From positions 78,517 through 142,516 of the forward strand of contig DATKWK010000023.1 in NCBI GenBank assembly GCA_035529595.1: a stretch of 64,000 nucleotides of DNA. The letters run 5' to 3'. Of this stretch, positions 1-49,224 are shown piece by piece. Numbering within the stretch: position 1 is the first letter of the stretch; the number at the start of each line of letters is the position of its first letter. Both the position numbers and the translations under genes were made by a program. This DNA comes from Candidatus Bathyarchaeia archaeon (GTDB lineage Bacteria; Patescibacteriota; Microgenomatia; PFEM01; JAFGMK01). A model generated the notes under the pieces. That model did no database searches, was not told where the DNA came from, and was given only the letters and a program-made list of their open reading frames with translations.

Positions 1-332
1 AGGAAGTCGGCCAGTGGCTTTACGTATCTACCCATAAACTATTTAAATATCCCGTTAGTCAAACTGAAGTTATTATGAGGTTTTTGAAATTTAATTCGCA
101 AATCCCACTGGTTAAATGGTTTACCAGGGATATTAAAGACGAAATCTTTATTAACATTGGCTTTGAAATCCACGTTGATGACTTTAATAAGGAAGTTCTG
201 TTTAAGAATTTAGACACGCTTTCTTATTATATTGATGACACCCTTGGTCTTTTAAAAAGAAAGGGCGTTTTGACTGAAAAAAATCTGACCAGAGTAGAAA
301 CGGTCACCAAAGACTCTCTGGAACTAGGCTAA
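1..332 (+). CDS. 3' part of a longer ORF entering from upstream of the window (frame 3 is open from position 3); hypothetical protein
   Basis: No stop in frame from window start to TAA at 330-332. No recognisable motif. Confidence 0.4.
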   Translation, partial: EVGQWLYVSTHKLFKYPVSQTEVIMRFLKFNSQIPLVKWFTRDIKDEIFINIGFEIHVDDFNKEVLFKNLDTLSYYIDDTLGLLKRKGVLTEKNLTRVETVTKDSLELG

Positions 333-483
333 TATTAATTTCCCGCACCTGACGTGCACATCGGTAAACCATTATGTTTGAAAATAAGCTTGTTTGATAG
401 AGAGAAGATCCAAGAATTCCTCAATTCCCAACCCGTCTATCCAATTTAGGAAAAATTTGAGAATATCTTTCTATTTTTCTTCC

Positions 484-756
484 TTACTCATTACTATTAT
501 TATTCTTCCTTTCGCACTGATAGATAATATCTGTAATTGCCATAGATAAGTTAGTAAACAATTTTTGTTTCACCTTTTTACTGTTTAATCTAAGTTTGTA
601 AACCCTTTCCAAAATAGGCCAAAATTGGTTTCTTTTAGAACTATAAAACCAGTCGTAGGCAGAGTCGTTAGCTTTCCTTTTTGCAGTAAAACTGCCTAGC
701 AATAAGAATTTTGCATTTGGAGGAGCAAAAAATTCAAAAGGATGTGTTTCTATCAT
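484..756 (-). pseudogene. Truncated uracil/hypoxanthine-DNA glycosylase family (UDG-like) N-terminal fragment, 90 aa
   Basis: FFAPPNAKFLLLGSFTAK...YDWFYSSKRNQFWPIL resembles the N-terminal motif block of UDG superfamily (family 4/6-like: ILILGSFPS...FYYGHPRNRFW). Ends after about 90 aa, versus about 160 aa for intact enzymes. Confidence 0.45.
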
Positions 757-874
757 GATTATTTATATCTTATCAAAATTGACAGGTGTATATTATGGCC
801 TTTAGATAAAATACAAACAAATGGCTAAAGCAATAAGATTCTTCTTTAATGTGGTTTATCAAGGTCAAATAAAT

Positions 875-900
875 GGCAGGGGCTGGTGAACTTTGTCAGG
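875..900 (+). repeat. Cassette-boundary repeat copy 1 (core only: GGCAGGGGCTGGTGAACTTTGTCAGG)
   Basis: Matches the core of the repeat found at 2516, 6478, 7643, 8255, 9471. Confidence 0.7.
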
Positions 901-1003
901 AATCTATTTTTTTAGAAAAAAAATTGTTATAGAATCCGACTTAGTCTTCTCCTGACGTAATTTACGTTGCGGTTTGACAATATTTTTAGTATTATAGGCG
1001 ATA

Positions 1004-2461
1004 ATGACTGAAACTGAGACAAGAAGAGACGTCTCGCAAATACCTTCCCGACCTGATTTTGTTTCTCTTTTGCAGCAATCGGGGCGATTTGAGCAAGCAG
1101 AAGGAGAAATAATCATTAATTCTATTAATGCGAGAATGGAGTTAGTAGAAAGAGAATATGGGGAGAACCCGCTTTTAGCTCGAGTAGCGACAATAATGAC
1201 GGGAGCGATTGATTATGCAAGGGCCTGTGCTCTAAAGTTGCAGCCAGAGAGAGTTGATGAACATGGGGATGCGCTTACTGTAGGTGATGTTACCACTAAA
1301 AGAGATATTGAGATTTATCGGAGAGTCGTTGAAGTCTTAGACAGTACCGGTATGAAATTTGTTATGCGGGGGGAAATTGAGGCTAAGTTGACTAAAACGG
1401 ACGGAGAATGGGAAATAGAGGATCTTAGGGCAGACAGCACAGGTAAAAAAATAACAAGTTCCGGTACTAGTAATTGCCCTGAAGGAGAAGCAGACTGGGT
1501 GTTTGTTATCGACCCTCTTGATGGAAGCGTTAATGAGACGCAAGGTAAAAAATCGGGGACAGTATTGGCTTGTGCTAAGTATGGTGGCAAGTTAAAGATG
1601 AGAGATCTCGAGATTGGTGTGGTAGCCGACTATTTGGCTGGCAGAAATGGAAATGAACGAGGGACTCAGAGATGTGTTGGGGTTAGGGGCTTAGGAGCCA
1701 GGCTTTTAAGAGCAAGAGAAATTGAAAGAATAACATTACCTGAACCTTCGCCACTTGACGAAGTACCCACATTTGGTGCCTATACAAAGTTTCCTTGGCA
1801 GGAAGAGCAACAGAAATTATTAGCGCGAGTTGTCTCTGAGGTTCTTGGGCAGAAGCAACAGAGAAGCACAGATGCCACTGCAGCCTGTTCAGTTGCCGTA
1901 GCTACCGGGGAGTTTCGGACTCATTGTGACGCAAGAGAAGCGACGAAGCTTTGGGATACGATTGCTTCTTGGGTAGTCATTAACGAAGTCACCGGGTTAA
2001 AGATGACAGATTTATTTGGTTTTTCCTTCGATGAGGCAGTACTTTATGATCCTGCTAACGAGAAATATGCGAAGGATGGGGGAATAAACAGAGCGATTGG
2101 GAAGCATTTTGTAATTGGTAGAGAAGAAGATAATTTGGCAATCACGCGGGGGTATTGTGAAGCGATTTTTTTTGGTCTAAGAGCTTCCTTATTACCTGCA
2201 AAGCGGCTAGAGTATTGGCATGATGCTGGAGAAATATTCGCTCGCATTTTGGAGCACAGAATTGATATGGCTGAAGAAGACTACGGAATTATAACAAGAT
2301 CCGATGTAGAAAGGTTTGTTTGTATAGTTAGAGATTTTTATTGCCGTGACTTTAAACCTCTGGCTGATACGGGTAGACCCGAGGTAGTTATTCCTTACCA
2401 GGGGGGGCTACGGGTGTTTGATCAGATAACTGGAGATCGTATAAAACGGATAAAAGGTTAA
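1004..2461 (+). CDS. Inositol-monophosphatase/FBPase-fold (IMPase superfamily) protein with about 150-aa N-terminal extension; GC clearly higher than flanks
   Basis: WVFVIDPLDGSVNET (DPxDG[ST] metal-binding motif) and downstream LWDTIASWVVINEVTG (WDxAA-like motif). About 48 % GC versus about 33 % in flanks. Confidence 0.5.
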   Translation: MTETETRRDVSQIPSRPDFVSLLQQSGRFEQAEGEIIINSINARMELVEREYGENPLLARVATIMTGAIDYARACALKLQPERVDEHGDALTVGDVTTKRDIEIYRRVVEVLDSTGMKFVMRGEIEAKLTKTDGEWEIEDLRADSTGKKITSSGTSNCPEGEADWVFVIDPLDGSVNETQGKKSGTVLACAKYGGKLKMRDLEIGVVADYLAGRNGNERGTQRCVGVRGLGARLLRAREIERITLPEPSPLDEVPTFGAYTKFPWQEEQQKLLARVVSEVLGQKQQRSTDATAACSVAVATGEFRTHCDAREATKLWDTIASWVVINEVTGLKMTDLFGFSFDEAVLYDPANEKYAKDGGINRAIGKHFVIGREEDNLAITRGYCEAIFFGLRASLLPAKRLEYWHDAGEIFARILEHRIDMAEEDYGIITRSDVERFVCIVRDFYCRDFKPLADTGRPEVVIPYQGGLRVFDQITGDRIKRIKG

Positions 2462-2515
2462 CAAATATACCAAAACCTCATTCAAAAACCAGATAATTAA
2501 TGAATTATTTTTCAT

Positions 2516-2560
2516 GTAGCAGGGGCTGGTGAACTTTGTTAGAACCTATTTTAGAGAATA
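2516..2560 (+). repeat. Cassette-boundary repeat copy 2
   Basis: GTAGCAGGGGCTGGTGAACTTTGTTAGAACCTATTTTAGAGAA. Confidence 0.8.
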
Positions 2561-2634
2561 AGCGCGTAGTTTATCAACTTCTTTGAGTCACAATGATTTT
2601 GCTTATGGTTAAATCTTCCTGATATAATCGTTTT

Positions 2635-3171
2635 ATGACTGGCAAGAGCGATAAATACCAGACGATTGATACTTATAATAAGACAGCAAAGATTCATTCT
2701 CAAAAGTTTGAGAATTACGGAGCAAGAATTGAAGATATTGAAAAGGCCTTTTCTTACATTGATAAATCAAATCCTAAAGTAATTGACATTGGTTGCGGTG
2801 ACGGCAGAGATGCAAAAGAGATTACTAAAAAAACTGATGATTATCTTGGCATTGATTTATCGGTTGAGCTGATTAAGATTGCCAGAAAAAAAGTTCCCCG
2901 AGGAAATTTTATAATAGCCGATTTTGAAACCTTTGAATATCCGCAGGGAGTAGATATAGTGTTTGCCTTTGCTGCCATACTCCATTCAGGCAGAGGAAGC
3001 GTAAAAAAATTACTGAAGAAAGTTTATCGATCCCTTACTCCTGGAGGAATTTTTTTTATCTCAACAAAATATGGTTCTTATCGTAGGAAGGTGATTGATA
3101 GAGACGGGCCGAAAGTAAATTTTCTTTATCGGCCTGAGGATATAATAAAAATGTCACCGGCTTGGGCTTGA
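2635..3171 (+). CDS. Class I SAM-dependent methyltransferase (small, 178 aa)
   Basis: VIDIGCGDGRDAKEI (motif I, GxGxG), followed by an acidic residue after beta-2 and the DIVFAFAAILH motif. Confidence 0.65.
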   Translation: MTGKSDKYQTIDTYNKTAKIHSQKFENYGARIEDIEKAFSYIDKSNPKVIDIGCGDGRDAKEITKKTDDYLGIDLSVELIKIARKKVPRGNFIIADFETFEYPQGVDIVFAFAAILHSGRGSVKKLLKKVYRSLTPGGIFFISTKYGSYRRKVIDRDGPKVNFLYRPEDIIKMSPAWA

Positions 3172-3391
3172 GGCAGTTTATCAAGATACTCGAATCTTGA
3201 GAGGCCAGAAATGGTTGACGATTATTCTTAAAAAGAGTCAGTTAAGATGAAGTTATTTTGATTATGAAGCAAAAAACATTTGATATAATAAATTTTAATG
3301 ACTGAAGATTTTGGGCAACTAAACATCTTTTTTAGAAATTTAAGGGTATTGATATTTGTGATACGATGATAACAATCTTGTCTCTTGAGAG

Positions 3392-3718
3392 ATGACCAAA
3401 AAACTGAAATATTTTACTATTATAGGAATAATTGCAATAGCGATGCTTTTAATCGTTGCTTACTTCTCAAACTCACTGAAAATATTTGGTTTATGTAAAC
3501 CGGGAATGGAACTGGGTACTATGCCTGCCGGCAGTTTCTGCTATAAGCCTAGCGGATATGACGGTAAACCCTGCAATAGGCAGACCGATTGCGGAACTGT
3601 AAGCTGTGTTTTGGTGGATAGATATAGCTTGAAAGGAAAATGTGAGGACATAGTTTTTGGTTGCCACCAATTAATTGATAAAGACGGTAATCTCGAGTCT
3701 TTAGTTTGTATTGATTAA
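3392..3718 (+). CDS. Small secreted/membrane-anchored cysteine-rich protein (108 aa), hypothetical
   Basis: N-terminal hydrophobic helix; 9 Cys in the mature part. Confidence 0.4.
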   Translation: MTKKLKYFTIIGIIAIAMLLIVAYFSNSLKIFGLCKPGMELGTMPAGSFCYKPSGYDGKPCNRQTDCGTVSCVLVDRYSLKGKCEDIVFGCHQLIDKDGNLESLVCID

Positions 3719-3783
3719 TAACGGGGGTAAATTATAATCCTGAGCGAGGTCGAAGGATTGAAAATAGTAAGCTTTACCGAACC

Positions 3784-3812
3784 ACTTTGTTGGAAACTGG
3801 TTTAGGGAGCAG
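3784..3812 (+). repeat. Degenerate copy of cassette-boundary repeat core (GAACCACTTTGTTGGAAACTGGTTTAGGGAG)
   Basis: Aligns with ...GTGAACTTTGTTAGAACCTATTTTAGAGAA of the full copies. Confidence 0.45.
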
Positions 3813-4225
3813 ATGAACAGCTTGGTAGTCTTTAATTCTTCCTCTTTAACTCAGCTTTTGACAGTTTATTCTCGAATAATTATACTAGTTTTAAATGATG
3901 GGGCAGTCAAAACAAAACCAAGATCAAAAAACAGAGCCTCAGAAAGTAAAAAGCTCGATAATTATTCCTTCTAAAGGGAAGGTTCTTGTTGGTATTGAAA
4001 CAGTCGGCAGTAGGGTTTAACTGCGAATAATAAAGATTTTCCTTGGCCCTTCTTCATCGAAACTGAGAATCGGTGTTTATCTTTTATTGATAATGGAAGA
4101 AGATCTAAGGCAATCTGGTCTCCTAACTGGTTTGCCATCAATTTAAGAGCTAAGGAAAGGTTCTTAAGGTAAAACGGAGATGGAAGCCAAAAGAAAGACT
4201 TAATTAACTATACAATTTTAACCAA

Positions 4226-6421
4226 ATGATTTTTTGGCCGCAGAAAAAAAGAGACCTTAAAAAGGTTATCATCATTATTTTCATGCTTCTAGTTATTGCC
4301 TTTTCTTTAATTGCCGTCCTTTTTAAAAGATTCAAAAACCTTGCACAATTTCCACCTTGTGACAATCTCTCAACTTTACACCTTGATTCTCAAGTACTAA
4401 CTTGCCCTCAAAGGGTTGATGAGACCGGTTGGATAGTCGAAAATGCCCAAGTAAAAGTGTTCCCCCATTGTTTAACAGTTATGAATTCTCGTTTCGGTTC
4501 GCGTTTCAATCTCGACTGGTATTTCTCAAATCAAAAAGTCACCTCAAGCACAATCGGTACTTTTGCCGATTATGATGTTAATTTAAATTTGGTTGTTCAA
4601 GAGCCGGATAAGGCCGAACAGCTTTTCCCATTATCAGCCAATAGTGATTTTCCCAGGCAATCAGTTGACCTTGGTCTGACTTATGAAAAGATCAATTTCG
4701 AGAGTGAAGACCTTCTGCTTTCATTTAATATCGTTTCTCCATTTTCGCCCAGTCAGTCAAGTCGTGACGATAATACCAAATTAAGTACAGCCCCTTTCTT
4801 CTATCTAGAACTATCCTTGGTTAATAAAACACCACTTTCCCAGGTCAAAAATATCTCTCTTTCTCTCGGTAATGCTCGAGAAATTAAAGATAAAAAAGAT
4901 TATTCGGTGGCATATTTCAATGACTATGCCCGAGAAGACGGGCAGCTTGCTTTAGCCAGTAGCAGAAAACAAACCGATATTGCCTCATTTATTAACAATA
5001 ACCGCGGTGGTTTTATTTGGAAAGTAAACCTTAAACCTTATTCTCAAGATACGGTAAGATTTATTTACGCTGGTTATCTCGAAGGTACCTCCCTTACTGA
5101 TAGTCGCCAAGAGAAAAAAAGAGAACTCAAATTTGCCTACCAACAGTGGTTTAATAACATTGATTCAGTTATTAATTTTGCCTTAGATCACGAGCCGGAA
5201 ATTGAAGATAAAAGAAATAAATTTGAGCAGAATGCGAAGAAACTTTCTAAGTCTCCGAAAATGTACTGGCTCCTTGCTCAATCATTCCATTCTTATATTG
5301 GTAATACCTGGCTGGTTTTTGATAAGGAAAAAGACGATTTAGAATATTATGTTTGGGAAGGAGAGTTTAAATATCTTAACACTCTAGATGTTGCTCACGA
5401 CTATGGGGTTTTAGAAGGTATATATTTTCCCTGGGTGTTAAAAGCAGAACTCAAATCTTGGCAAAAGAGTGCTAAAAAAGACGAAAAAGGCACTGTTATT
5501 CCCCATGACTTAGGATCGCGTTTTGTTATTAAATCATCTCAGGCCTACGGCATTGACGGTTGGGAAACCTCTGGGATGCCAGTGGAAGAAAATGCAAATT
5601 TCATCCTACTTACATATTGGTATTGGCATCAAACTAAAGACCATCAGTTTATTAGGGAAATCACGCCATTTTTAAAAGAATTGATAAACTCTCTTATGGC
5701 ACGTGACGGTAACCAAAATGGCTTGGCTGACCAACTGATCAGGATGACTACCTATGATAATGACGGCAACTCTGCCTTAAAAGAGGCTCCTGACGGAACA
5801 TACCTTGGTTTAAAGCAGTTGGCCGCTTACCTTTCTGTTGAGAAAATTTTTCAATTTCTAAAAGAAGATGAGTATCAAAAGATAGTTAATGAAGAGGCTA
5901 AACTAATCGTTCAAAGCCTAGAAAAGGCCCAATCAACCTATGGTTTTATACCCCTTACGATAGATCCTTCTTTTCAGGAAAAAAACCAATTTAACAACCG
6001 AACTGTTTTAGGCACCGAGGAACAGGGTTTTGTTTTTATCAGCGGGTTATTCTATCATGCTCTTACCAATTTTGACCATCCTTTACTAAAAGAAATTATC
6101 CCTCTACTTTCTAAGAACTATCCCACCGCCTATCAAAAAAGTCTGGTAAAAAATGAGAGCGACGAGATCATTGGACTGAGGCTTGCCGAAAATCAAGACT
6201 TAGCTTTGGGTTGGTTTTCCCATAGTGTCATTGCCGATTATATTGCGAAAAAACTCTTTAATCAGAATTATCAATCTACAGAAATTTTCTTTCCCCTTCT
6301 TTATGACAATCCCTTTAGTTTTGCTGATGGCCAATTTTTTAAGAAACCTTTTTATCCTCCTCAAAATACTCTCGTTTTTTATCCTCGGGGAGTTTCTCTT
6401 TTTGCCTATCTCAAGGAATAA
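4226..6421 (+). CDS. Large membrane-anchored extracytoplasmic protein (731 aa), hypothetical; possibly an (alpha/alpha)6-type glycosidase-like fold
   Basis: Single N-terminal TM helix. No catalytic motif recognised with confidence. Confidence 0.35.
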   Translation: MIFWPQKKRDLKKVIIIIFMLLVIAFSLIAVLFKRFKNLAQFPPCDNLSTLHLDSQVLTCPQRVDETGWIVENAQVKVFPHCLTVMNSRFGSRFNLDWYFSNQKVTSSTIGTFADYDVNLNLVVQEPDKAEQLFPLSANSDFPRQSVDLGLTYEKINFESEDLLLSFNIVSPFSPSQSSRDDNTKLSTAPFFYLELSLVNKTPLSQVKNISLSLGNAREIKDKKDYSVAYFNDYAREDGQLALASSRKQTDIASFINNNRGGFIWKVNLKPYSQDTVRFIYAGYLEGTSLTDSRQEKKRELKFAYQQWFNNIDSVINFALDHEPEIEDKRNKFEQNAKKLSKSPKMYWLLAQSFHSYIGNTWLVFDKEKDDLEYYVWEGEFKYLNTLDVAHDYGVLEGIYFPWVLKAELKSWQKSAKKDEKGTVIPHDLGSRFVIKSSQAYGIDGWETSGMPVEENANFILLTYWYWHQTKDHQFIREITPFLKELINSLMARDGNQNGLADQLIRMTTYDNDGNSALKEAPDGTYLGLKQLAAYLSVEKIFQFLKEDEYQKIVNEEAKLIVQSLEKAQSTYGFIPLTIDPSFQEKNQFNNRTVLGTEEQGFVFISGLFYHALTNFDHPLLKEIIPLLSKNYPTAYQKSLVKNESDEIIGLRLAENQDLALGWFSHSVIADYIAKKLFNQNYQSTEIFFPLLYDNPFSFADGQFFKKPFYPPQNTLVFYPRGVSLFAYLKE

Positions 6422-6429
6422 TTTATATT

Positions 6430-6535
6430 CCCACCTCAAGGTGGTTTTCTCCTTGCACCTGGGATATTTTTTCAATTTTTGAGCCTAAAAAGCAGGGGCT
6501 GGTAAACTTTGTTGGAACTTATTTTAGAGAAAGTT
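6430..6535 (+). repeat. Cassette-boundary repeat copy 3 (extended form: palindrome module CACCTCAAGGTGG + core)
   Basis: ...ATTTTTTCAATTTTTGAGCCTAAAAAGCAGGGGCTGGTAAACTTTGTTGGAACTTATTTTAGAGAAAG. The upstream module is shared with copy 4. Confidence 0.8.
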
Positions 6536-6652
6536 TTAATAATTCTTCAATGACAGTTAGTCAAGGATGCACTTAAGTTCCCACATCACCTCTTTATAAA
6601 GTTAATAAATTAGCTTAAACTGTGTTCTTGATACTTAATATTTTTTAGACAC

Positions 6653-6696
6653 TTGACATTGTGTGAAAATCTTTGCTAGTGTTTCTATGTATGAAG
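6653..6696 (+). promoter_or_regulatory. Promoter-like TTGACA...TAGTGT/TATGTAT upstream of the 6776 ORF
   Basis: TTGACA at 6653, AT-rich -10 candidates 18-25 nt downstream. Confidence 0.3.
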
Positions 6697-6728
6697 TTAA
6701 ACTGGGCTACCTATTTAACTTAGTTATT

Positions 6729-6754
6729 AAATCCGCTTATGGGCGGATTTTTTT
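6729..6754 (+). terminator. Intrinsic-terminator-like hairpin plus T-run in the 5' leader of the 6776 ORF (possible attenuator)
   Basis: AATCCGCttatgGGCGGATTTTTTTT immediately followed by RBS AGGAGGTG and the ATG. Confidence 0.5.
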
Positions 6755-6775
6755 ATGGAAAGGAGGTGAAAAAGA

Positions 6776-7537
6776 ATGAATTACAAGTTATTAATCAGTA
6801 TTTTTACAGCCTCGTTGGTATCAGTTTCTATATTTGTCATAGGATTTTTCATGGGTCAAACAAAAGTTTCTCCCCAGCCTCCTCAACAAGTCATTTTAGG
6901 AGAAAAAAATCAATCCGCAAGCAAGGACTGTATTACCATTCAAGACGGTAAACTGACTTATTCGCCGGGCCATTATCTTGACGAAACTCCGATTTCGACA
7001 GGTTATGATGAGTATGGATACAATTATCAAGCTCACATGTTTAATGGCTCATATGCCAATGTTTACCTTGGCGGAGGCGACTTTCCACCTTATAAAGGTA
7101 ACGATGTAGAATATTTGGCCGAAAATCCTGGGGCAGAAAATGAATGGTATTGGCCTTATCGAGATGTTGAATTGCTGATGAGATGGAACGATAGTTGGAT
7201 TGCCAATCAGGATTGTGACGACGATGGTTTATTGGACAGGCACTTTGGTAATACTAGCTATGTAGGTTCTGGGGCCTGGGAGACTAATCATCAATCAGGC
7301 GTTTATGAAGTTGAAGGCAGAACCTGTAAGTGGAATTATTTCGTCAAGATTGTAGCTGTCCCCGCTGATGCTATATTGGAAAATGGTATCTGGAAAACGG
7401 CCAACGGGGCCGAAATTGGCCTTGATATTTGGGGTCAGTTTGCCATAATTCAACAAATTTACAATGACCCGTGTGAAGGATCCCACGGGGTAGAATATCT
7501 CAGTCCTGCCGGACCTGGATTTGGCAAGTGGAAATAG
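6776..7537 (+). CDS. Secreted hypothetical protein (253 aa, signal/anchor helix)
   Basis: Strong RBS AGGAGGTG; N-terminal hydrophobic segment. No recognisable motifs. Confidence 0.45.
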   Translation: MNYKLLISIFTASLVSVSIFVIGFFMGQTKVSPQPPQQVILGEKNQSASKDCITIQDGKLTYSPGHYLDETPISTGYDEYGYNYQAHMFNGSYANVYLGGGDFPPYKGNDVEYLAENPGAENEWYWPYRDVELLMRWNDSWIANQDCDDDGLLDRHFGNTSYVGSGAWETNHQSGVYEVEGRTCKWNYFVKIVAVPADAILENGIWKTANGAEIGLDIWGQFAIIQQIYNDPCEGSHGVEYLSPAGPGFGKWK

Positions 7538-7596
7538 GAAACGCTGATTCAGCTTTCAGTGTCCAAAATATAGCCACTTTTCCTTAAAGTAAATAC

Positions 7597-7690
7597 ACCT
7601 TGGAGGTGTCTTTCCCTTGACACCTTGGAAATTTTTCAATTTCTGAGCCTAAAAAGCAGGGGCTAGTGAACTATGTTAGAACCTGGTTTA
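7597..7690 (+). repeat. Cassette-boundary repeat copy 4 (extended form with palindrome CACCTTGGAGGTG)
   Basis: ...GGAAATTTTTCAATTTCTGAGCCTAAAAAGCAGGGGCTAGTGAACTATGTTAGAACCTGG. Confidence 0.8.
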
Positions 7691-8197
7691 TTAACTCTTG
7701 ATATTATTTAAGCTGAAAAAGTGAAATTTATCTACACCCCAACCCGGGGGATACAATCCAAAGCCTTGAGGTTTGGCAATTTCCCGAGCACCAAGATTCT
7801 TGAAGTAGCGATATGAATTGATATTTGTTTTTCTGATAACGGCTACCAAGAGTGCTTTTTTATAAGTATGTTTAGCCGTAGATAACAGTTCATTAATCAT
7901 TTTCTTGGCAATGCCTTTCTTTCGGTATCCGGGATGGACGACTAGGGAACCGACTTCAAGAACTGGCGTGTTATCTTTCTTGCCATTTTCAAAGAACTTA
8001 GCAAAGCCGACAGTAATATTGTTGAATAAGGCAAGAACTCCCTGGTTTTCTTTCAAAATTCTTTCTATCTCTTGTTCTTCCAGAACTAACATGTGAGACT
8101 TTTCTTGCCGGAGAAGATTTCTGATCTGCCTTATGTGAGAACTATTATCTGTGTAGTGGAAAAGCTTAATTTCAGTTTTTTCTCTTTTCTGCATCAT
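7691..8197 (-). CDS. GNAT family N-acetyltransferase
   Basis: VHPGYRKKGIAKKMINELL = acetyl-CoA-binding motif A (R/Q-x-x-G-x-G/A). Confidence 0.7.
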   Translation of the reverse strand: MMQKREKTEIKLFHYTDNSSHIRQIRNLLRQEKSHMLVLEEQEIERILKENQGVLALFNNITVGFAKFFENGKKDNTPVLEVGSLVVHPGYRKKGIAKKMINELLSTAKHTYKKALLVAVIRKTNINSYRYFKNLGAREIAKPQGFGLYPPGWGVDKFHFFSLNNIKS

Positions 8198-8254
8198 GAC
8201 TAAAATTATACCCTTTTTATTAAATCTAGAGCGAGAAGTACGAAGAAGAAGGTT

Positions 8255-8295
8255 GCAACAGGGGCTAGTGAACTTTGTTAGAAACTACTTTGCGG
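8255..8295 (+). repeat. Cassette-boundary repeat copy 5
   Basis: GCAACAGGGGCTAGTGAACTTTGTTAGAAACTACTTTGCGG. Confidence 0.75.
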
Positions 8296-8323
8296 ATGTT
8301 CGCAATTCATGTAGAATATTATT

Positions 8324-8911
8324 ATGGCCGAAAAGTGTGTTGGTGAGATAAAAAAAGCTGGTTTGATTGGTGTGATCTATGAGGTGAGGATAAGACTCGA
8401 GCCTTTGGTTAAGGCTATTCAGGAGGGTGCCTTGGAACCTGATGATTTTCAGAAAGTGGCTGATTTTGGTGCTGGCTATGGTAATTCTGCAAGAGCGATT
8501 ATGATCGCCATGCCCGGAGCAGATATAACTGCACTAGAACAGAACGAGGAGCTTGCTGAAGTGATTATTAAGAGAGGCATACTGCCAGAAGAGAGAGTAA
8601 AAAGAGGTGATGGGATAGACTTTTTATCAGAAAGTAGGAACGCTCGAAAATTTACATTAGTTACCGCCTTTGGTTTGGAGCCGATTAAAGATAGCAGTTT
8701 GTTCAAAAAGTTCGTCATTGCTGCGGATAATGCCCTTAGAGATAAAGGAAAGCTACTAATAGAATCCGACGCTAAAAGCATGGGAGTTGTTCGTAGCGAA
8801 TTGAGAAAAGCTAGTGTGAATGCTTATTCGAGAGATGTCGGTCTGGGAGGTATGGTTGTTTTGACTCGTGACGAATGCGATAAGGTAGCTTCGTATTATA
8901 ACAGTATATAA
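8324..8911 (+). CDS. SAM-dependent methyltransferase-like protein (195 aa), GC higher than flanks
   Basis: VADFGAGYGNSARAI (motif I). Confidence 0.5.
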   Translation: MAEKCVGEIKKAGLIGVIYEVRIRLEPLVKAIQEGALEPDDFQKVADFGAGYGNSARAIMIAMPGADITALEQNEELAEVIIKRGILPEERVKRGDGIDFLSESRNARKFTLVTAFGLEPIKDSSLFKKFVIAADNALRDKGKLLIESDAKSMGVVRSELRKASVNAYSRDVGLGGMVVLTRDECDKVASYYNSI

Positions 8912-8950
8912 GCAAGATAGAATTTGGGTCTTTTTTTTGAATTAAGATAG

Positions 8951-9010
8951 TTTGGCAGAGGCTAAAGCCTGTCCGCCTCTGGAGGAAACTTTGTTAGTAA
9001 CTTCTATCAG
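8951..9010 (+). repeat. Cassette-boundary repeat copy 6 (variant: hairpin GGCAGAGGC...GCCTCTGG + GAAACTTTGTTAGTAAC)
   Basis: Shares the AACTTTGTTAG(A/T)AAC tail with the other copies. Confidence 0.55.
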
Positions 9011-9423
9011 GCTGAAAGATACTTATCGATAAACAAACCAACCTTTTCGTTTACTTGTTTAATAACGTCAGGGTAGAGGCGGTAATCGTGGGTACAATTA
9101 ATTTTGTGTAACTCTTTTGGCTCAGGAATTGTCTTATAAATTTCTCTGACCTGTTTAGGTGTAGTGAACTCATCTTTGGTGGCATAAAAAATAATTTTAG
9201 GTTTCATGCAAGTTTTTAAGACTTCTGCGTCATTATATTTACTTCCATCTTTGAAGTAGTTTAATGAAGCTGTAAACTTCTTTTTATTCTTAGTCCTTTT
9301 TGTGCCGGGAGGCAAATCTCTGTAATCAATATATAGACCAGCTTTTAAGGTTTTGGTATCAGGTGGCGAGGGAGTTCCTAATGATGGATTAATTAAAACT
9401 TTAGCATTAAAAGGGGACGGTTC
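9007..9423 (-). pseudogene. C-terminal fragment of an alpha/beta-hydrolase (about 100-138 aa; intact enzymes about 250-300 aa)
   Basis: ...IIFYATKDEFTTP...CTHDYRLYP: the Asp and His of the catalytic triad at the usual C-terminal spacing. No nucleophile-elbow region. The annotated start (9315) is TTG and the frame is open back to 9423, where it abuts repeat copy 7. Confidence 0.45.
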
Positions 9424-9470
9424 TCAATCAGGTACGAGATTAGTAACTTCCAATAATTTTTGGTTTATGT

Positions 9471-9550
9471 CTGAGGCTAAAAAGCAGGGGCTGGTGAACT
9501 ACAATCGTGTAAACCGATTTGTAGTAAACTATGTTGGAAACTATTTTCAG
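9471..9550 (+). repeat. Cassette-boundary repeat copy 7 with a 25-nt hairpin insertion (ACAATCG...CGATTTGT) inside the core
   Basis: CTGAGGCTAAAAAGCAGGGGCTGGTGAACT[acaatcgtgtaaaccgatttgtagta]AACTATGTTGGAAACTATTTTCAG. Confidence 0.75.
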
Positions 9551-10086
9551 ATTTGAGTTAGTTGATATGTCCAACCAGGTTGCCATTTCCAAGGGGCTGG
9601 AATGACTTCTTTTAAAGGTAAACCTTTAATTAAATGTTCTAATCCATATTGAGTAGCCCTGTGTCCAATTATCATTACCTTCTTATTATCATAATCTCTA
9701 AGCAAGTCCCGGAGAAAATTTTCCATTCTTTCTGAACATTGAGAATAGCTTTCTCCATTAGGAAAGGGGACATTAATTCTTTTTGGTTTTTCTGCATCAA
9801 CCTCACTACTTGGATGTTGGGTATAATCTCCGTAATCGCACTCTCTTAATCTTTTATCTTGAATGATTGGAAGGTTTCTGTTTGGAAATGCAATCTCTCC
9901 AGTTTTGTATGATCTTTGTAAGTCAGAACAGAAGATTGCATCAAAAGTGACATTCTTGTATCTTTCTCCCAGCTCTGCAGCTTGTTTTTCTCCAAGTGAG
10001 GAAAGTTCCACATCAAAATGTCCAGAAGAAAGATGTGTTTCGTTATCTTTAGTTGTTCCGTGTGATTCAAAAACTACTTCAACCAT
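9547..10086 (-). CDS. Histidine phosphatase (phosphoglycerate-mutase-like) family protein with atypical SHG instead of RHG
   Basis: VVFESHGTTKDNE (RHG-like motif, R replaced by S) and downstream IIGHRATQ (second conserved His). Confidence 0.6.
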   Translation of the reverse strand: MVEVVFESHGTTKDNETHLSSGHFDVELSSLGEKQAAELGERYKNVTFDAIFCSDLQRSYKTGEIAFPNRNLPIIQDKRLRECDYGDYTQHPSSEVDAEKPKRINVPFPNGESYSQCSERMENFLRDLLRDYDNKKVMIIGHRATQYGLEHLIKGLPLKEVIPAPWKWQPGWTYQLTQI

Positions 10087-10101
10087 ACGGGAATTCTAAC
10101 A

Positions 10102-10270
10102 CATTTGAGCCTAAAAAGCAGGCCTTAGTTGACGACATTCCCACCTCCAAGGTGTGTTTCCCCTTGCTGGTAAACACCTTCTTTCACTTCGGAGGTGCTT
10201 TTCTTCCTGTACCTTGGGAAGGTAAGGAATATCACCTTCAAGTTGTAAAAGTCCTGTTTCGAAGGGTATA
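10102..10270 (+). repeat. Cassette-boundary repeat copy 8 (5' core TTGAGCCTAAAAAGCAGG followed by a palindrome-rich module: CACCTCCAAGGTG, CACTTCGGAGGTG, CACCTTCAAGTTG)
   Basis: The core is truncated after AGCAGG. The downstream segment carries the same palindrome type as the upstream modules of copies 3 and 4. Confidence 0.55.
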
Positions 10271-10279
10271 TTTGGCGCC

Positions 10280-10549
10280 CTAATCTGTTTCAAGTGTGTT
10301 TTTAAGCATCTGCTTTATTCTTCGCCAACCAGCGGTTGTTTTAAAGTATTTTTCGCAGCTGATCGCGTCTTTTTGATTATTAAACGAACAATAGAAAATT
10401 AATTCGTAAGGAACATTAGGTTTAGTGGCTTTATTCTCGCCTTGATTATGTTCTTTTAGCCTGATTTTTAGGTCAGAAGTGAAGCCAATGTAAAGCTTAT
10501 TATTTCTCTTACTTCTGAGAATGTAAGTATAGAAGTACTGGCCGGCCAC
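10280..10549 (-). CDS. GIY-YIG nuclease domain protein (small stand-alone, 89 aa)
   Basis: YFYTYILRS..NKLYIGFTSDLKIRLKEHN = GIY...YIG motif with conserved R and E/N. Confidence 0.75.
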   Translation of the reverse strand: MAGQYFYTYILRSKRNNKLYIGFTSDLKIRLKEHNQGENKATKPNVPYELIFYCSFNNQKDAISCEKYFKTTAGWRRIKQMLKNTLETD

Positions 10550-10642
10550 GTTCAGTGTGATTTCTCCTTTCCGAATCGACTAGTCAAATCTTTTTAAATT
10601 AGTTGACATAAACTCGATACATATTTAGTTGACACATGAACG

Positions 10643-10716
10643 TGGCAGGGGCGGAGGGAATCGAACCCCCGATTGCTGTTTTGGAGACAGCAGTTATACC
10701 ACTTAACTACGCCCCT
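10643..10716 (-). tRNA. tRNA-Trp (anticodon CCA), 3'-CCA encoded
   Basis: rc = AGGGGCGTAGTTAAGTGGTATAACTGCTGTCTCCAAAACAGCAATCGGGGGTTCGATTCCCTCCGCCCCTGCCA. Anticodon loop CUCCAAA; 7-bp acceptor stem. Confidence 0.85.
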
Positions 10717-10803: not shown

Positions 10804-10977
10804 CTACTTCAGCTTGCTGGTTTCCTTGTGAATAGTATGCTTGCGGCAACGTCGACAATATTTCTTAAGCTCCAGCTTGTCCGGGGTGTTAACTTTATTT
10901 TTTTCGGTCACGTAGTTTTGCGATTTGCAAACAGTGCAAACTAAAGCCGAGATTTGCCTTGGTCCTTTTTTCGCCAT
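10804..10977 (-). CDS. rpmG: 50S ribosomal protein L33 (57 aa), not in the supplied ORF track
   Basis: Translates to [57 protein letters not shown] with a CxxC...CxxC zinc ribbon. RBS GGAGG 9 nt upstream. Classic rpmG-tRNA-Trp linkage. Confidence 0.85.
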
Positions 10978-40689: not shown

Positions 40690-42126
40690 ATGAAAAAGAA
40701 ATGGCCGGCTTATTTCAACGAGAGACTTTGGTTGGTTAACCCCAGTCAGGGATATATCGGTATTGTTACCTGCTGGACCGCAAAAGAACAGGTTGCTCCC
40801 CGAATGCCCAGCCAAGTAGCTTTAGTCGGCCAGCTTTATACCAAAGCCGGGATCGAGTTTATCATCCGTAATCTTTGGGCAAATCCGCAAATTTCCTCTC
40901 TGGTAGTTTGCGGCCAGGACTTAACCGGAAGCGGGCAGGCTTTAGTTGAATTTTTTGAAAGAGGGACTATCGATAACCAAAGACCATTTTTTGAAGAGCA
41001 GATACCCAGGAGAGATCTCGTTCTTATCCGGAAAAAAGTCGGCTTGGTTTCTCTCTTGGGCGAGGTAGATCCTGACTTAATTGCGCGAAAAGTTGCTGGC
41101 TTGAAATTTTCTCCTCCTTTTGCTTCCCGGCCTAAATTTTTTCCGCAGTCTCAATTGATGGAGGCCTTTCCTTCCGAGCCTTCGCTGTTTCGGGTTGAAG
41201 CCAAAACAATCGGTGAAGCTTGGCTGCAAATTTTGGGATTGATTTTGAAATTCGGCCGCCGACTTCCGAGGATCTATGTTTACGGAGGCTATGAAAGGGT
41301 TCTCCTAAATTTATCGGTCTTAATAACTGATGAGGATATAAAAAAACCTAAATTATGGCCCTATTTTCAGTTTAATAAGGAACAGCTGAAAACGTATTTC
41401 CGGAGTTTCTTCTCTCCTGAGCGTGGTGGTGAGGCCTATACCTATGGGGAACGACTATTTGCTTATCCGTCAGAGGGGAATGTTGTTGACCAAGTGACTA
41501 AGATGGCTAACAAATTAAAAAGCTTTCCCTATAATAAGGGGGCGTTAGCGGTTCTTTGGCAACCGGCTATCGATAATTTTCCGATCCGTAAGCCCTGGCG
41601 AACACCATGTTTGACTTTAGTCCAGGGGATATGCCTGGGTGATGAACTCTGTTTGACGGCTTTTTTTCGTGCCAATGATATGTTTGCCGCCTGGCCTCAA
41701 AACTGCTTTGCTTTAAGGAAACTGCAAACAGAGATTGCCAAAAAAATCGGCAAAAAAATCGGCGCTTTGACGACGATATCTCATACTGCCTTTATTGATG
41801 AGGCTGATTTGCCTAAAGCACAAAAGGTTATTAATGACAACCAGCCGTTGTTCTGCCAATTAGATCCGCGGGGAAATATAGCGGTTACGGTTGAAGGGAA
41901 AATTATCGTTAGCCGTCATTTTTCGCCGGAAGGAAAACTCTTAGCAGAATACCGCCAGAATGGTTTGGTACCGAAGGCAGCCTTGAAATTGGAACGAAAG
42001 CTTATCTCAAGCCAGGTTATTTCCAGAGTTGACCATGCCCTGGATATCGGCGAACACCTGGGCCGGGCCGAGGATGCCGTTAAGTTAGGATTAAAGTTTG
42101 AACAAGATCGGCAACTAAAGAAATAA
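40690..42126 (+). CDS. Thymidylate synthase (ThyA)-family enzyme with about 170-aa N-terminal extension and C-terminal tail (478 aa); dUMP-utilising methylase or hydroxymethylase
   Basis: ThyA-like blocks: YGERL (cf. YGxQWR), VDQVTKMANKLKSFP...ALAVLWQP (cf. IDQ..LK.DP.SRR..SAWNP), PCLTLVQ (catalytic Cys in the PCH context), FRANDMFAAWPQN (cf. YQRSxDxxLGxPFN; Asn retained), SHTAFI (cf. GDxHxY). The phosphate-binding RR pair appears replaced (NK). Confidence 0.6.
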   Translation: MKKKWPAYFNERLWLVNPSQGYIGIVTCWTAKEQVAPRMPSQVALVGQLYTKAGIEFIIRNLWANPQISSLVVCGQDLTGSGQALVEFFERGTIDNQRPFFEEQIPRRDLVLIRKKVGLVSLLGEVDPDLIARKVAGLKFSPPFASRPKFFPQSQLMEAFPSEPSLFRVEAKTIGEAWLQILGLILKFGRRLPRIYVYGGYERVLLNLSVLITDEDIKKPKLWPYFQFNKEQLKTYFRSFFSPERGGEAYTYGERLFAYPSEGNVVDQVTKMANKLKSFPYNKGALAVLWQPAIDNFPIRKPWRTPCLTLVQGICLGDELCLTAFFRANDMFAAWPQNCFALRKLQTEIAKKIGKKIGALTTISHTAFIDEADLPKAQKVINDNQPLFCQLDPRGNIAVTVEGKIIVSRHFSPEGKLLAEYRQNGLVPKAALKLERKLISSQVISRVDHALDIGEHLGRAEDAVKLGLKFEQDRQLKK

Positions 42127-48339: not shown

Positions 48340-49224
48340 GTGGCCAAACAAGAAGCCGAATCAAGATTTGATTTCGTACCTAGCCCAGAAATTCTTTATC
48401 TCGAGAGCCCGGAGCAACTTCAGGACAGAGAGATTTTTGTCTATCGGGTACATGATCCTGAACCGATGTTTGCGCGCCAGGTAGTGGAGAGGCTTTGGGG
48501 AATAGCAGGTGAAGTAAATCCAGGAACTGAAATGCCTATTAAATTTTACCGGAGAATGCCTCATGGAATTAAAAGCGATTCGGTTCATGACGAGTTCAAT
48601 ATATCTTTGGCAGTGCCGATTGAAAATCAATTAGCGGAAGCATTAGGAATTTGTCAGGGATTAGCTTTTATTGATCGGAAGAATTCCGATCTTCCGTGGA
48701 ATTTAGTGGTTGAAAGCCCGGTGATCGCCTCAAGCGAAGGAGACGCTAGTCATTTTTTATTGATTGATCTTGATGGTAAGGTTAATAGCCTAGATCAGTT
48801 CGTAATCGAAAATAGTTTTAAAGCAGCCGGTTTTTCCGGGTTTTTATTGGTTAGCGGCGCCTCTTATCATTACTGGTCTGATTTTACTGTTTCGGCGGAT
48901 AGTCTGCCGGCTTTTTTGGGGACTGCGGCTGCGGCTTTAACACCGCAAGTTTCCGATAATGATCGTTTATTGTCGATTGCTTTTCGAATGTCAGTTTGCC
49001 AAAATTTGGCAGAAGGTCAGGAATTAGCTTCTCAAATTCTTAACCGGAACAGCGCTCTTTTTATTCCTTCTTCAGGCAGTGGTTTTAAAAGCGGGAGTTT
49101 TTTTGATTTTCGCTGGGCTTGTCACCGTTTATTAGCCGGGAAATTAGCTTTGAGGGTAAGTTCGGACCGATATCCGCAAGAACCGATATTGATTTCCGAA
49201 TTAACGGCCAGAAGCTTTTCATGA
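48340..49224 (+). CDS. Hypothetical protein (294 aa)
   Basis: No recognisable motif. Follows the acidic paralog in the same way the 469-aa protein does. Confidence 0.4.
   Translation: MAKQEAESRFDFVPSPEILYLESPEQLQDREIFVYRVHDPEPMFARQVVERLWGIAGEVNPGTEMPIKFYRRMPHGIKSDSVHDEFNISLAVPIENQLAEALGICQGLAFIDRKNSDLPWNLVVESPVIASSEGDASHFLLIDLDGKVNSLDQFVIENSFKAAGFSGFLLVSGASYHYWSDFTVSADSLPAFLGTAAAALTPQVSDNDRLLSIAFRMSVCQNLAEGQELASQILNRNSALFIPSSGSGFKSGSFFDFRWACHRLLAGKLALRVSSDRYPQEPILISELTARSFS

Follow-up and report, generated by a model that had tools for sequence, protein, structure and literature searches.

A 64,000-nucleotide stretch of contig DATKWK010000023.1 (assembly GCA_035529595.1, positions 78,517 to 142,516 of the forward strand; hereafter the window) carries near its left end an array of short direct repeats alternating with genes, and the array faces the 3' end of a tRNA-Trp gene. 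Between positions 872 and 10122, eight full and two partial copies of one repeat unit of ~35 to 50 bp were found by direct-repeat detection, by a mismatch-tolerant pattern search, and by a profile search, all of which agreed. Every copy lies on the plus strand (100%) and in an intergenic gap (100%), over a span of 9.3 kb; for the 17-mer GCAGGGGCTGGTGAACT, the window contains 6 matches at up to 3 mismatches versus 0.10 expected. A co-oriented, intergenic repeat family had been placed here in an earlier reading of the window from its sequence alone (the sequence-only reading), and these copies were confirmed, with only the right half being present at 3768-3805. Each inter-repeat gap, here called a cassette, holds one gene, or in one case two genes. 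On the other side of the tRNA lies rpmG, whose homologues put the organism beside 'Candidatus Amesbacteria'. The repeats, cassettes, and flanking genes, in window coordinates, are as follows.

872-909, plus: repeat 1, the distal-most junction; full copy, aaATGGCAGGGGCTGGTGAACTTTGTCAGGAATCTATTT
910-2514, plus: window cassette 1; 485-aa inositol-monophosphatase-fold (IMPase-like) protein, gene 1004-2461, plus
2515-2553, plus: repeat 2; full copy
2554-3767, plus: window cassette 2; S-adenosylmethionine (SAM) methyltransferase, 2635-3171, plus, and small Cys-rich putative secreted protein, 3392-3718, plus
3768-3805, plus: repeat 3; left half degenerate, right half CACTTTGTTGGAAACTGGTTT kept as the sole recognizable part
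3806-6467, plus: window cassette 3; 731-aa GH52/GH116-like protein, 4226-6421, plus
6468-6526, plus: repeat 4; full copy with left extension TTTTTCAATTTTTGAGCCTAAAAA
6527-7631, plus: window cassette 4; 253-aa protein with N-terminal hydrophobic segment, 6776-7537, plus
7632-7690, plus: repeat 5; full copy with left extension
7691-8253, minus: window cassette 5; GNAT acetyltransferase, 7691-8197, minus, its stop codon adjoining repeat 5
8254-8291, plus: repeat 6; full copy, followed by TGTAGAAT and, 7 nt further, by ATG (8324)
8292-8950, plus: window cassette 6; 195-aa methyltransferase-like protein, gene 8324-8911, plus
8951-9009, plus: repeat 7; left half (TTTGGCAGAGGCT...) broken by a ~22-nt hairpin-forming insert, right half AACTTTGTTAGTAAC intact
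9010-9471, minus: window cassette 7; C-terminal alpha/beta hydrolase fragment, 9007-9315, minus
9472-9549, plus: repeat 8; left part 9472-9500 and right part 9527-9549, with a 30-nt palindromic insert, 9501-9530, between them
9550-10105, minus: window cassette 8; histidine phosphatase, 9547-10086, minus
10106-10122, plus: left half-site, TGAGCCTAAAAAGCAGG; likeness to the repeat ceases exactly after GCAGG
10123-10649, minus: 527-bp unit that looks like the last one inserted; 140-nt non-coding stretch (10137-10280) and 89-aa GIY-YIG nuclease gene, 10280-10549, minus
10643-10716, minus: tRNA-Trp(CCA); its 3' acceptor end (plus strand TGGCAGGGGCGG) stands in place of a repeat left half
10804-10977, minus: rpmG (ribosomal protein L33), the conserved chromosomal neighbor on the other side of the tRNA

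A profile search detected no further copies in the 54 kb of the window from 10.2 to 64 kb, nor in the 9 kb upstream of position 1, which were taken from the European Nucleotide Archive (ENA) copy of the same contig.

Distribution of the site

Other genomes and metagenomes were searched by an exact scan with a degenerate 24-mer and then with a profile; the locus counts given from here on are among the matches listed. The 24-mer scan found 11 loci in one-genome-per-species contigs, belonging to Microgenomates, Woesebacteria, and 'Patescibacteria group' metagenome-assembled genomes (MAGs) together with some labelled Bathyarchaeia or Gammaproteobacteria, and at least 118 stretches of Joint Genome Institute (JGI) metagenome contigs with the 24-nt core. 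With the profile, the total rose to at least about 348 copies in about 130 loci, most of them short metagenome contigs; two or more copies are present in 90 loci, the maximum being 11. No locus has repeats in mixed orientation.

The site logo, ttGCAGGGGCTAGTaAACTTTGTCAGGAACTtcTtt, is best conserved in its right half. Even across genomes whose housekeeping flanks are only 63-70% identical, this half, which is the one not shared with the tRNA (see below), is the best kept part, and such conservation fits a site that would be recognized by a protein. In the Amesbacteria relatives, the main-type site is accompanied by a variant, TTTTGCAGCYCTGGATGGAAGACGTTCGAACCTATTACGC; the two are interleaved and co-oriented, and all 13 variant-type sites found within main-type arrays point the same way as their neighbors.

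Array contigs (L004, L006, L009, L010, and L012; also P0003) have Patescibacteria-type arrays and syntenic flanks and are filed as Bathyarchaeia or 'uncultured Gammaproteobacteria' MAGs, and the window's own L33 protein bears the name Bathyarchaeia at NCBI. The array contigs filed under these two names are probably mis-binned or mislabelled.

Anchoring of the array at the 3' end of tRNA-Trp

The complete site is asymmetric and reads (TGArGCTAwwTT)GCAGG/GGCTAGTRAACTTTGTYRGRAAC, with a block AACTTTGTCAGGAAC distinct from GCAGG (here and below, a slash marks the junction of the two halves). Its left half, (T)GGCAGGGGC or TTGCAGGGGC, is the reverse complement of the acceptor 3' strand of tRNA-Trp. 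The DNA just beyond the 3' end of the tRNA bears the left extension of the internal repeats (tTGArGCTAtttt), and the tRNA body occupies the position of the repeat right half; the tRNA gene is therefore the terminal half-site of the array and its docking site. This relation had been missed by the sequence-only reading, which let the array end at the GIY-YIG gene; functionally, the array ends at the tRNA-Trp gene itself.

In the window and in L003, L004, and L006, the array and tRNA-Trp are oriented with their 3' ends toward each other, and about 27 array-tRNA junctions were found across all loci. Among the 26 arrays for which at least 2 kb beyond the last detected repeat was covered, 13 reach tRNA-Trp, always on the opposite strand, and 1 reaches tRNA-Leu. 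On the upstream side, none of 41 loci has any tRNA within 1.5 kb.

The GCAGG(GGC) core is identical to the tRNA-Trp 3' end, and tRNA prediction gives a complete gene at each junction. The tRNA itself varies, reading GCAGGCCCG in L004, L049, L074, and L076, GCAGGGCC in L080 and L082, GCAGGGCTG in L134, and GCAGGGGTG in six others, while the repeats within arrays having variant tRNAs stay GCAGGGGCT and the outer flank of the tRNA is of the cassette type. Because the tRNAs differ in this way from the repeats of the same array, the switch from cassette to tRNA lies inside GCAGG. All these tRNAs share these bases, namely C74, the G73 discriminator, and acceptor positions 72-70. The half-copy at 10106 in the window (AAAAAGCAGG/CCTTAGTTGAC) breaks precisely at this exchange point. 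Reverse transcription primed by a tRNA through complementarity with GCAGGGGC was also considered as an origin of the arrays and was dropped, since cassettes retain GCAGGGGC where the host tRNA has GCAGGCCC.

The window locus corresponds to the gap between rpmG-tRNA-Trp and secE-nusG. In L148, the canonical rpmG-tRNA-Trp-secE-nusG-rplKAJL cluster is split by a 4.5-kb island exactly there, which bears out the earlier suggestion that this is an island neighborhood where secE and nusG would be expected to follow.

At the opposite end of the arrays, the distal junction in L074, L035, and L071 consists of unique flank followed by ATTGCAGGGGC/TAGTGAAC. Repeat 1 of the window reads ATGGCAGGGGC there, and its left half has TGG (encoded CCA), being the sole window copy to do so and resembling the resident tRNA. 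We read repeat 1 as a composite whose left half would be the original tRNA-Trp 3' end, since displaced, and whose right half would come from a cassette, and the distal junctions between flank and right half would fit the same origin. One lineage has its far junction where a Cas4-like nuclease gene ends. This PD-(D/E)XK nuclease (354 aa; L127 1001-2065; Pfam Cas_Cas4, E 6.5e-5) adjoins the distal-most repeat and occurs also in L032, L045, L064, L078, L085, and L125; its stop codon is provided by the repeat (GTGGAG TGA ACTTTG). Its presence varies between relatives, and it is missing at the same place in L074 and L035. A second recurrent neighbor, a protein of ~220 aa (L082 1899-2564; also L049, L063, L074, L078, L106, L127, and L133), has an HTH_23 domain at its N terminus and matches no other family; in eight loci it sits inside a tRNA-Thr/Tyr/Trp cluster at the position held by rpmG in the window.

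Next to the tRNA in the window, the GIY-YIG unit is flanked by GCAGG left and right, and TTAGTTGACRACAT occurs close to each of its ends. The right end, ...GAACGTGGCAGG/GGCGGAGGG, supplies the last bases of tRNA-Trp, including CCA. It looks like the last insertion, made by a different insert family with ends of another type at the same tRNA crossover. CACCT/AGGTG hairpin motifs of the kind present at 6431-6454 and 7598-7620 abound in its non-coding stretch (10137-10280).

Other tRNAs are found at some array ends. Three arrays end at tRNA-His (L018 761-900, L029 95-700, and L118 123-720) with the junction tgaggctactc/GGGGTGGCC, where the core overlap is GGGG only; the form of these junctions suggests that tRNA-His may be an occasional secondary target. 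The tRNA-Leu flank (L061, L088; L028 7880-8023) contains a partial T-arm duplicate, aaggactcgaacctcc, a scar left by another kind of tRNA-integrating element close to these arrays.

Modularity, polymorphism, and cargo of the cassettes

In all-against-all blastn comparisons, alignments between loci start and stop at the repeat anchors (-15...+20). L127 and L133 share 99.3% identity over 701 nt between non-homologous neighbors, and L091 and L131 share 95% over 505 nt. Arrays L127 and L032 contain homologues of the window's histidine phosphatase cassette between copies of the same repeat, at 72% nucleotide identity. Arrays with a common distal flank (87-95% identity) differ in cassette content and order, as shown below from the distal end toward the tRNA.

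L125:. –. – 6 –. –. – 3 –. – 56 – 57
L032: 6 – 3 – 16 – 35 – 15 – 12 –. –.
L127:. – 32 – 33 – 15 – 12 – 16-tRNA
L064:. – 3 – 56 – 57 – 53
L085:. – 6 – 19
L078: 52 – 3 –. – tRNA
L074: 13 – tRNA

Cassette 16 is proximal to the tRNA in two arrays and internal in one. Cassette content is thus strongly variable between related genomes, a comparison that the sequence-only reading had itself put forward as a check. In a second sample the window locus is identical, so that sample gives no polymorphism information.

The 203 distinct cassettes have a median length of 616 bp (5-95%, 299-1999); 82% carry a single gene, and 85% of their sequence is coding. Gene orientation is nearly balanced, with 100 on the minus and 94 on the plus strand. 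The cargo includes NUDIX proteins (22 loci), 2H phosphoesterases, methyltransferases, GNATs, deaminases, alpha/beta hydrolases, toxin-antitoxin pairs, and AbiEii and zeta toxins; a homologue search with a NUDIX cassette gave only 2 matches.

In the window, the 731-aa gene of window cassette 3 is followed on its 3' side by a terminator-like hairpin, CCACCTcaAGGTGGTTTT, at 6431-6454, and the 253-aa protein of window cassette 4 has no family match. The cassettes are AT-shifted, with a GC content of 34.8-42.4% versus 43.4 ± 3.4% for the backbone; this range is narrower than the ~33-48% given in the sequence-only reading. The two truncated genes of that reading are both real. The open reading frame (ORF) at 9007-9315 (minus) covers its alpha/beta-hydrolase profile only at positions 245-320 of 367, and the ORF at 484-756 (minus), which lies outside the repeat-bounded part, is the N-terminal half of a truncated DNA-deoxyinosine (hypoxanthine) glycosylase (TIGR04274 positions 6-80 of 150, E 1.8e-8), just outside repeat 1 in a very AT-rich stretch (32.7% GC).

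The truncated genes, together with the decayed sites of the window array, could be taken as signs that the arrays are a graveyard of larger tRNA-integrating elements (genomic islands, satellites, or accretions like those of tycheposons or of cis-mobilizable elements [CIMEs]) whose integrases were lost while cargo and att scars stayed. Tycheposons do show serial integration at tRNAs with partial-tRNA repeats and older elements pushed outward (bioRxiv 10.1101/2020.12.28.424599), and one array has a large serine recombinase element at a tRNA-His 8 kb away. We nevertheless consider such a graveyard distinctly improbable. The size distribution of the 203 cassettes is tight, identical cassettes stand between different neighbors, promoter modules common to the cassette ends are in fixed phase (see below), and integrase fragments were not found in 693 kb; the decay of multi-kb elements would not repeatedly yield clean one-gene units with intact sites.

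Promoter modules at the cassette ends

Both ends of a cassette bear a promoter module facing inward. On the array strand, TAnAAT boxes are concentrated 40-50 nt past the core (52 versus 4 on the other strand), and in one subfamily TG-TAGAAT lies exactly at +46, with the start codon 6-7 nt on. On the opposite strand, just left of the core, the arrangement ...TAGCCTCAGATGA-TATAAT-N6-7-ATG is found, with 35 matches at 15-20 nt versus about 5 in the control. Each junction therefore consists of a promoter for a minus-strand gene, the core, and a promoter for a plus-strand gene, and, since both core flanks carry such modules, it also has a role in expression. The distance from box to start codon suggests that the cassette transcripts are probably leaderless. 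In the window, the GNAT and methyltransferase-like cassettes follow the pattern (8195-8215 and 8292-8326), and the minus-strand GNAT gene has a TATAAT box 7 nt ahead of its ATG. A TAnAAT box (often TG-TAGAAT or TGATATAAT) 6-7 nt ahead of the start codon, at a fixed distance from the core and on the gene's own strand, is seen generally in L003-L134.

The position of the core between two promoter modules is what would be expected of an ordinary dispersed element, such as a repetitive extragenic palindromic (REP) sequence, a terminator, or an operator, here clustered by chance. This explanation is hardly credible. Across 73 kb of the window contig, copies occur in the array alone, so the repeat is not the genome-wide REP element or terminator that would have spoken against a cassette array. 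Their orientation is constant regardless of gene orientation, they are free of hairpins, unlike the palindromic REP sequences and bacterial interspersed mosaic elements (BIMEs), they are fused to the end of tRNA-Trp, and homology between loci is bounded by the cassettes.

Origin and folding of the site

The GGTTCGAAC of the variant site is a T-loop signature. When the sites are aligned to tRNA-Trp, GTYRGRAAC of the main type and GTTCGAAC of the variant match the T-loop with a few extra spacing bases. Given that the variant carries the GGTTCGAAC T-loop, the site in its entirety is a degenerate copy of the 3' half of a tRNA, like the attP of elements that target tRNAs. In Rfam at gathering thresholds, only tRNAs were found.

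The sites are conserved in sequence and not in structure. Twelve folds gave z-scores from -1.45 to +1.5, and for 314 distinct copies, both strands of which were folded as single-stranded DNA, the mean ΔG values were -2.8 and -2.5 kcal/mol with a mean z of +0.5; no hairpin is apparent in either set. Integron sites have the cores RYYYAAC and GTTRRRY at their two ends and are exchanged between G and TT. Here, only a loose GTTAGAA or GTCAGGA resembles the integron core, with the exchange point GCAGG ~20 nt to its left, and no upstream inverse core (RYYYAAC) is present in the sites. The likeness to GTTRRRY to which the sequence-only reading pointed thus reflects descent from the T-arm and acceptor of a tRNA and not an attC core.

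Palindromic inserts occur at an equivalent internal position of a few sites, being 30 nt long in the window (9501-9530) and ~45 nt in L140 (13268-13362 and 15778-15872). They lie between the GGTGAACT-type block and the GTTRGAAC-type block; they may represent a longer version of the site, or else a very small hitch-hiking element.

An integron, or a cluster of attC sites lacking an integron integrase (CALIN), with divergent attC sites would account for the array architecture with one site per cassette, for the diverse small genes, including toxin-antitoxin pairs in relatives, and for the loosely GTTRRRY-like tail. It is highly improbable and already contradicted: the sites do not fold, genes stand in both orientations (100:94) with promoters of their own, intI was not found in the searches, and the platform is a tRNA gene. 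From the sequence-only reading, the cassette array itself therefore stands, in the form of discrete exchangeable modules, and the integron/attC framing does not, given the lack of hairpins, the ~50:50 orientation, and the cassettes' own promoters. The array is best read as integron-like in function, yet not an integron.

Proposed mechanism and the search for a recombinase

We propose that the arrays arise as integrase-less cassettes integrate one after another, site-specifically, at the 3' end of tRNA-Trp, with a recombinase acting in trans, and we give this reading a probability of roughly 0.6. Small, presumably circular gene cassettes would integrate repeatedly at the chromosomal tRNA-Trp 3' end. 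Each would bring along, as a rule, a single gene of either orientation, a leaderless promoter of its own, and one asymmetric tRNA-derived site. With the exchange taking place inside GCAGG, the incoming cassette would donate the last few bases of the tRNA, so the tRNA remains intact, and each insertion would displace the previous junction outward. With L and R for the left and right halves of the site, the outcome would be a one-directional series of the form chromosomal flank/R - cassette - L/R - cassette - ... - L/tRNA. The tRNA body, being the constant part of the platform, would thereby play the role of the integron attI, and any two internal L/R sites could excise a cassette for re-insertion, to which the differing cassette order between arrays points indirectly. 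As the recombinase is not encoded at the array, it would have to act in trans; the enzyme would most likely be a tyrosine recombinase encoded elsewhere in the genome.

A number of results weigh against this proposal. No recombinase domain, Phage_integrase or other, was found with Pfam in about 85 kb of the window contig, including 9 kb upstream and ~64 kb downstream of the array. The intI that had been thought possibly to lie upstream was thus not there, and neither it nor any other recombinase was seen beside the about 130 arrays. Clustering of the 1468 ORFs from these loci gave no recombinase, and none recurred among the 119 integrase-sized ORFs (Pfam). Searches of the six-frame translation of 693 kb by phmmer with XerD and gamma-delta resolvase gave nothing, in a test of low sensitivity with single probes. 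The ORFs of the largest cassettes contain no recombinase, and none lies within ±10 kb of the syntenic locus in five rpmG-homologue loci of Amesbacteria relatives. The site was absent from the viral contigs, phage records, and plasmid records searched, and it has no obvious inverted symmetry of the kind typical of tyrosine or serine recombinase cores. In 12 of the 26 arrays with downstream coverage there is no tRNA within 2 kb; variant or decayed sites may conceal a continuation of the array in these cases. The window array itself may be inactive, given several decayed sites and the GIY-YIG unit of a different type between the array and the tRNA. Finally, deletion, duplication, and homologous exchange between 35-50-bp repeats after DNA uptake could yield much of the polymorphism.

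Recombinases were likewise not found at the solo-site loci L011 and L013, nor among unannotated neighbors (NCBIfam and PHROGs), and no helper element with an integrase occupies the tRNA-proximal position in about 27 junctions. The Cas4-like nuclease, the ~220-aa helix-turn-helix protein, and the recurrent GIY-YIG genes were rejected as universal components, since the window contig has no homologue of any of them. A 525-aa large serine recombinase (Resolvase, Recombinase, and Zn_ribbon_recom domains) at L135 1000-2577 overlaps the 3' end of a tRNA-His, 8 kb from an array, and adjoins a DUF87/TrwB-like ATPase; it is probably part of a separate integrated element.

The absence of a recombinase near about 130 arrays is what would be expected if no dedicated enzyme existed, with the repeat serving as portable homology plus promoters for natural transformation and RecA, like the minimal mobile elements of Neisseria, and with the fusion to tRNA-Trp being one ancient event. 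The competence gene dprA in the window contig and the promoter modules flanking the core, with their role in expression, agree with such an origin, and precise single-cassette insertions and deletions would be equally expected from recombination between repeats. Even so, we judge it unlikely. An identity of 35-45 bp across genera is short for efficient exchange by RecA, and homology alone does not require the non-tRNA half to be more conserved than the housekeeping flanks. Cassette and tRNA switch within the same 5 bases despite acceptor stems that differ among lineages, and the fusion of the left extension to a tRNA recurs at tRNA-His with only GGGG shared, which is impossible for homologous recombination. 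Cassette 16, moreover, is found both inside an array and at the tRNA.

The missing integrase and the tandem, co-oriented, target-regenerating arrays would also be accounted for if integrase-less elements exploited the host Xer recombinases at a dimer-resolution (dif) site, as do integrative mobile elements exploiting Xer (IMEXs). This is weakly contradicted and only remotely probable. GC skew keeps its positive sign throughout the 64 kb of the window, which places the locus away from the replication terminus; the site lies in a tRNA gene and is without an 11-6-11 dyad, and an Xer-like gene was not seen in about 85 kb.

Other genes of the window contig

Besides dprA, two genes farther along the window stand out. 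At 40690-42126 lies the gene for a thymidylate synthase of 478 aa that has additional MtrA-like and pterin-binding DUF4346 domains, and at 48340-49224 that for a 294-aa primase-polymerase resembling archaeo-eukaryotic primases (AEP-like). Both sit in a nucleotide-metabolism cluster with genes for a dCMP deaminase, a deoxynucleoside kinase (dNK), serine hydroxymethyltransferase (SHMT), FolD, and two thymidylate kinases.

Relation to known systems and significance

With integrons, sedentary chromosomal integrons and CALINs included, the arrays share a one-directional order of mostly single-gene cassettes with one site each, a fixed platform side that stays constant after insertion, highly variable content among close relatives, and a cargo of small accessory enzymes and toxin-antitoxin genes. 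Integrons differ in having IntI, a folding attC, and mostly promoterless cassettes in one orientation driven from the cassette promoter Pc, none of which is found here; the platform here is the 3' end of a tRNA gene and the host belongs to the candidate phyla radiation (CPR)/Patescibacteria.

With tRNA-targeting elements such as islands, CIMEs, and tycheposons, the arrays share an att site that copies the 3' part of a tRNA and regenerates the tRNA. CIMEs are integrase-less units flanked by att sites and depend on a helper in tandem. In tycheposons, too, newcomers push older elements outward and partial-tRNA repeats remain; those of Prochlorococcus have integrase and replication modules, kb-scale cargo, and serial tRNA integration (bioRxiv 10.1101/2020.12.28.424599). 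The arrays differ from all of these in being made of ~0.6-kb single-gene units, up to 11 or more in a row, with no integrase, replication, or excision genes found in or beside them, and in using one ~35-nt core across many genera, with exchange at the extreme 3' end of the tRNA (positions 70-74).

IMEX and pdif modules are similar in being integrase-less, bounded by short sites, mobilized by a recombinase encoded elsewhere, and tandem at their target. Modules of the pdif type alternate in orientation. In the arrays described here, by comparison, all sites are direct, dif is not the target, the terminus lies elsewhere, and there is no 11-6-11 dyad.

In a search of the full-text literature, tRNA-anchored arrays of single-gene cassettes were not found described, whether for CPR bacteria or for other organisms, and a 2025 survey of gene exchange in Patescibacteria leaves tRNAs, integrases, and cassettes unmentioned. 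We rate the system as combining integron-like function with the chemistry of tRNA integration. On the sequence evidence, we see even odds that CPR bacteria of the Microgenomates/Amesbacteria type possess an integron-independent gene-capture system, with a trans-acting recombinase, docking at tRNA-Trp, self-expressed single-gene cassettes, and a double-stranded tRNA-derived site of ~45 bp.

The 24-35-nt core and the tRNA-Trp anchor offer a handle, as PCR primers or as an in-silico key, on the accessory gene pool of these organisms in metagenomes, and the arrays may help explain the assembly fragmentation and wrong binning of these loci. Once the enzyme is found, the compact site, with the short core at which exchange occurs, could be developed into a new tool for recombination. 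To our knowledge, integrons are so far the sole general platform known to stockpile single-gene cassettes. If our proposal is true, a second, mechanistically distinct platform in the ultra-small CPR bacteria would mean that cassette shelves evolved more than once, and it would provide a concrete route of gene flow for organisms with genomes of about 1 Mb and few recognizable mobile elements. Minimal genomes would then have a dedicated, shareable shelf for accessory genes.

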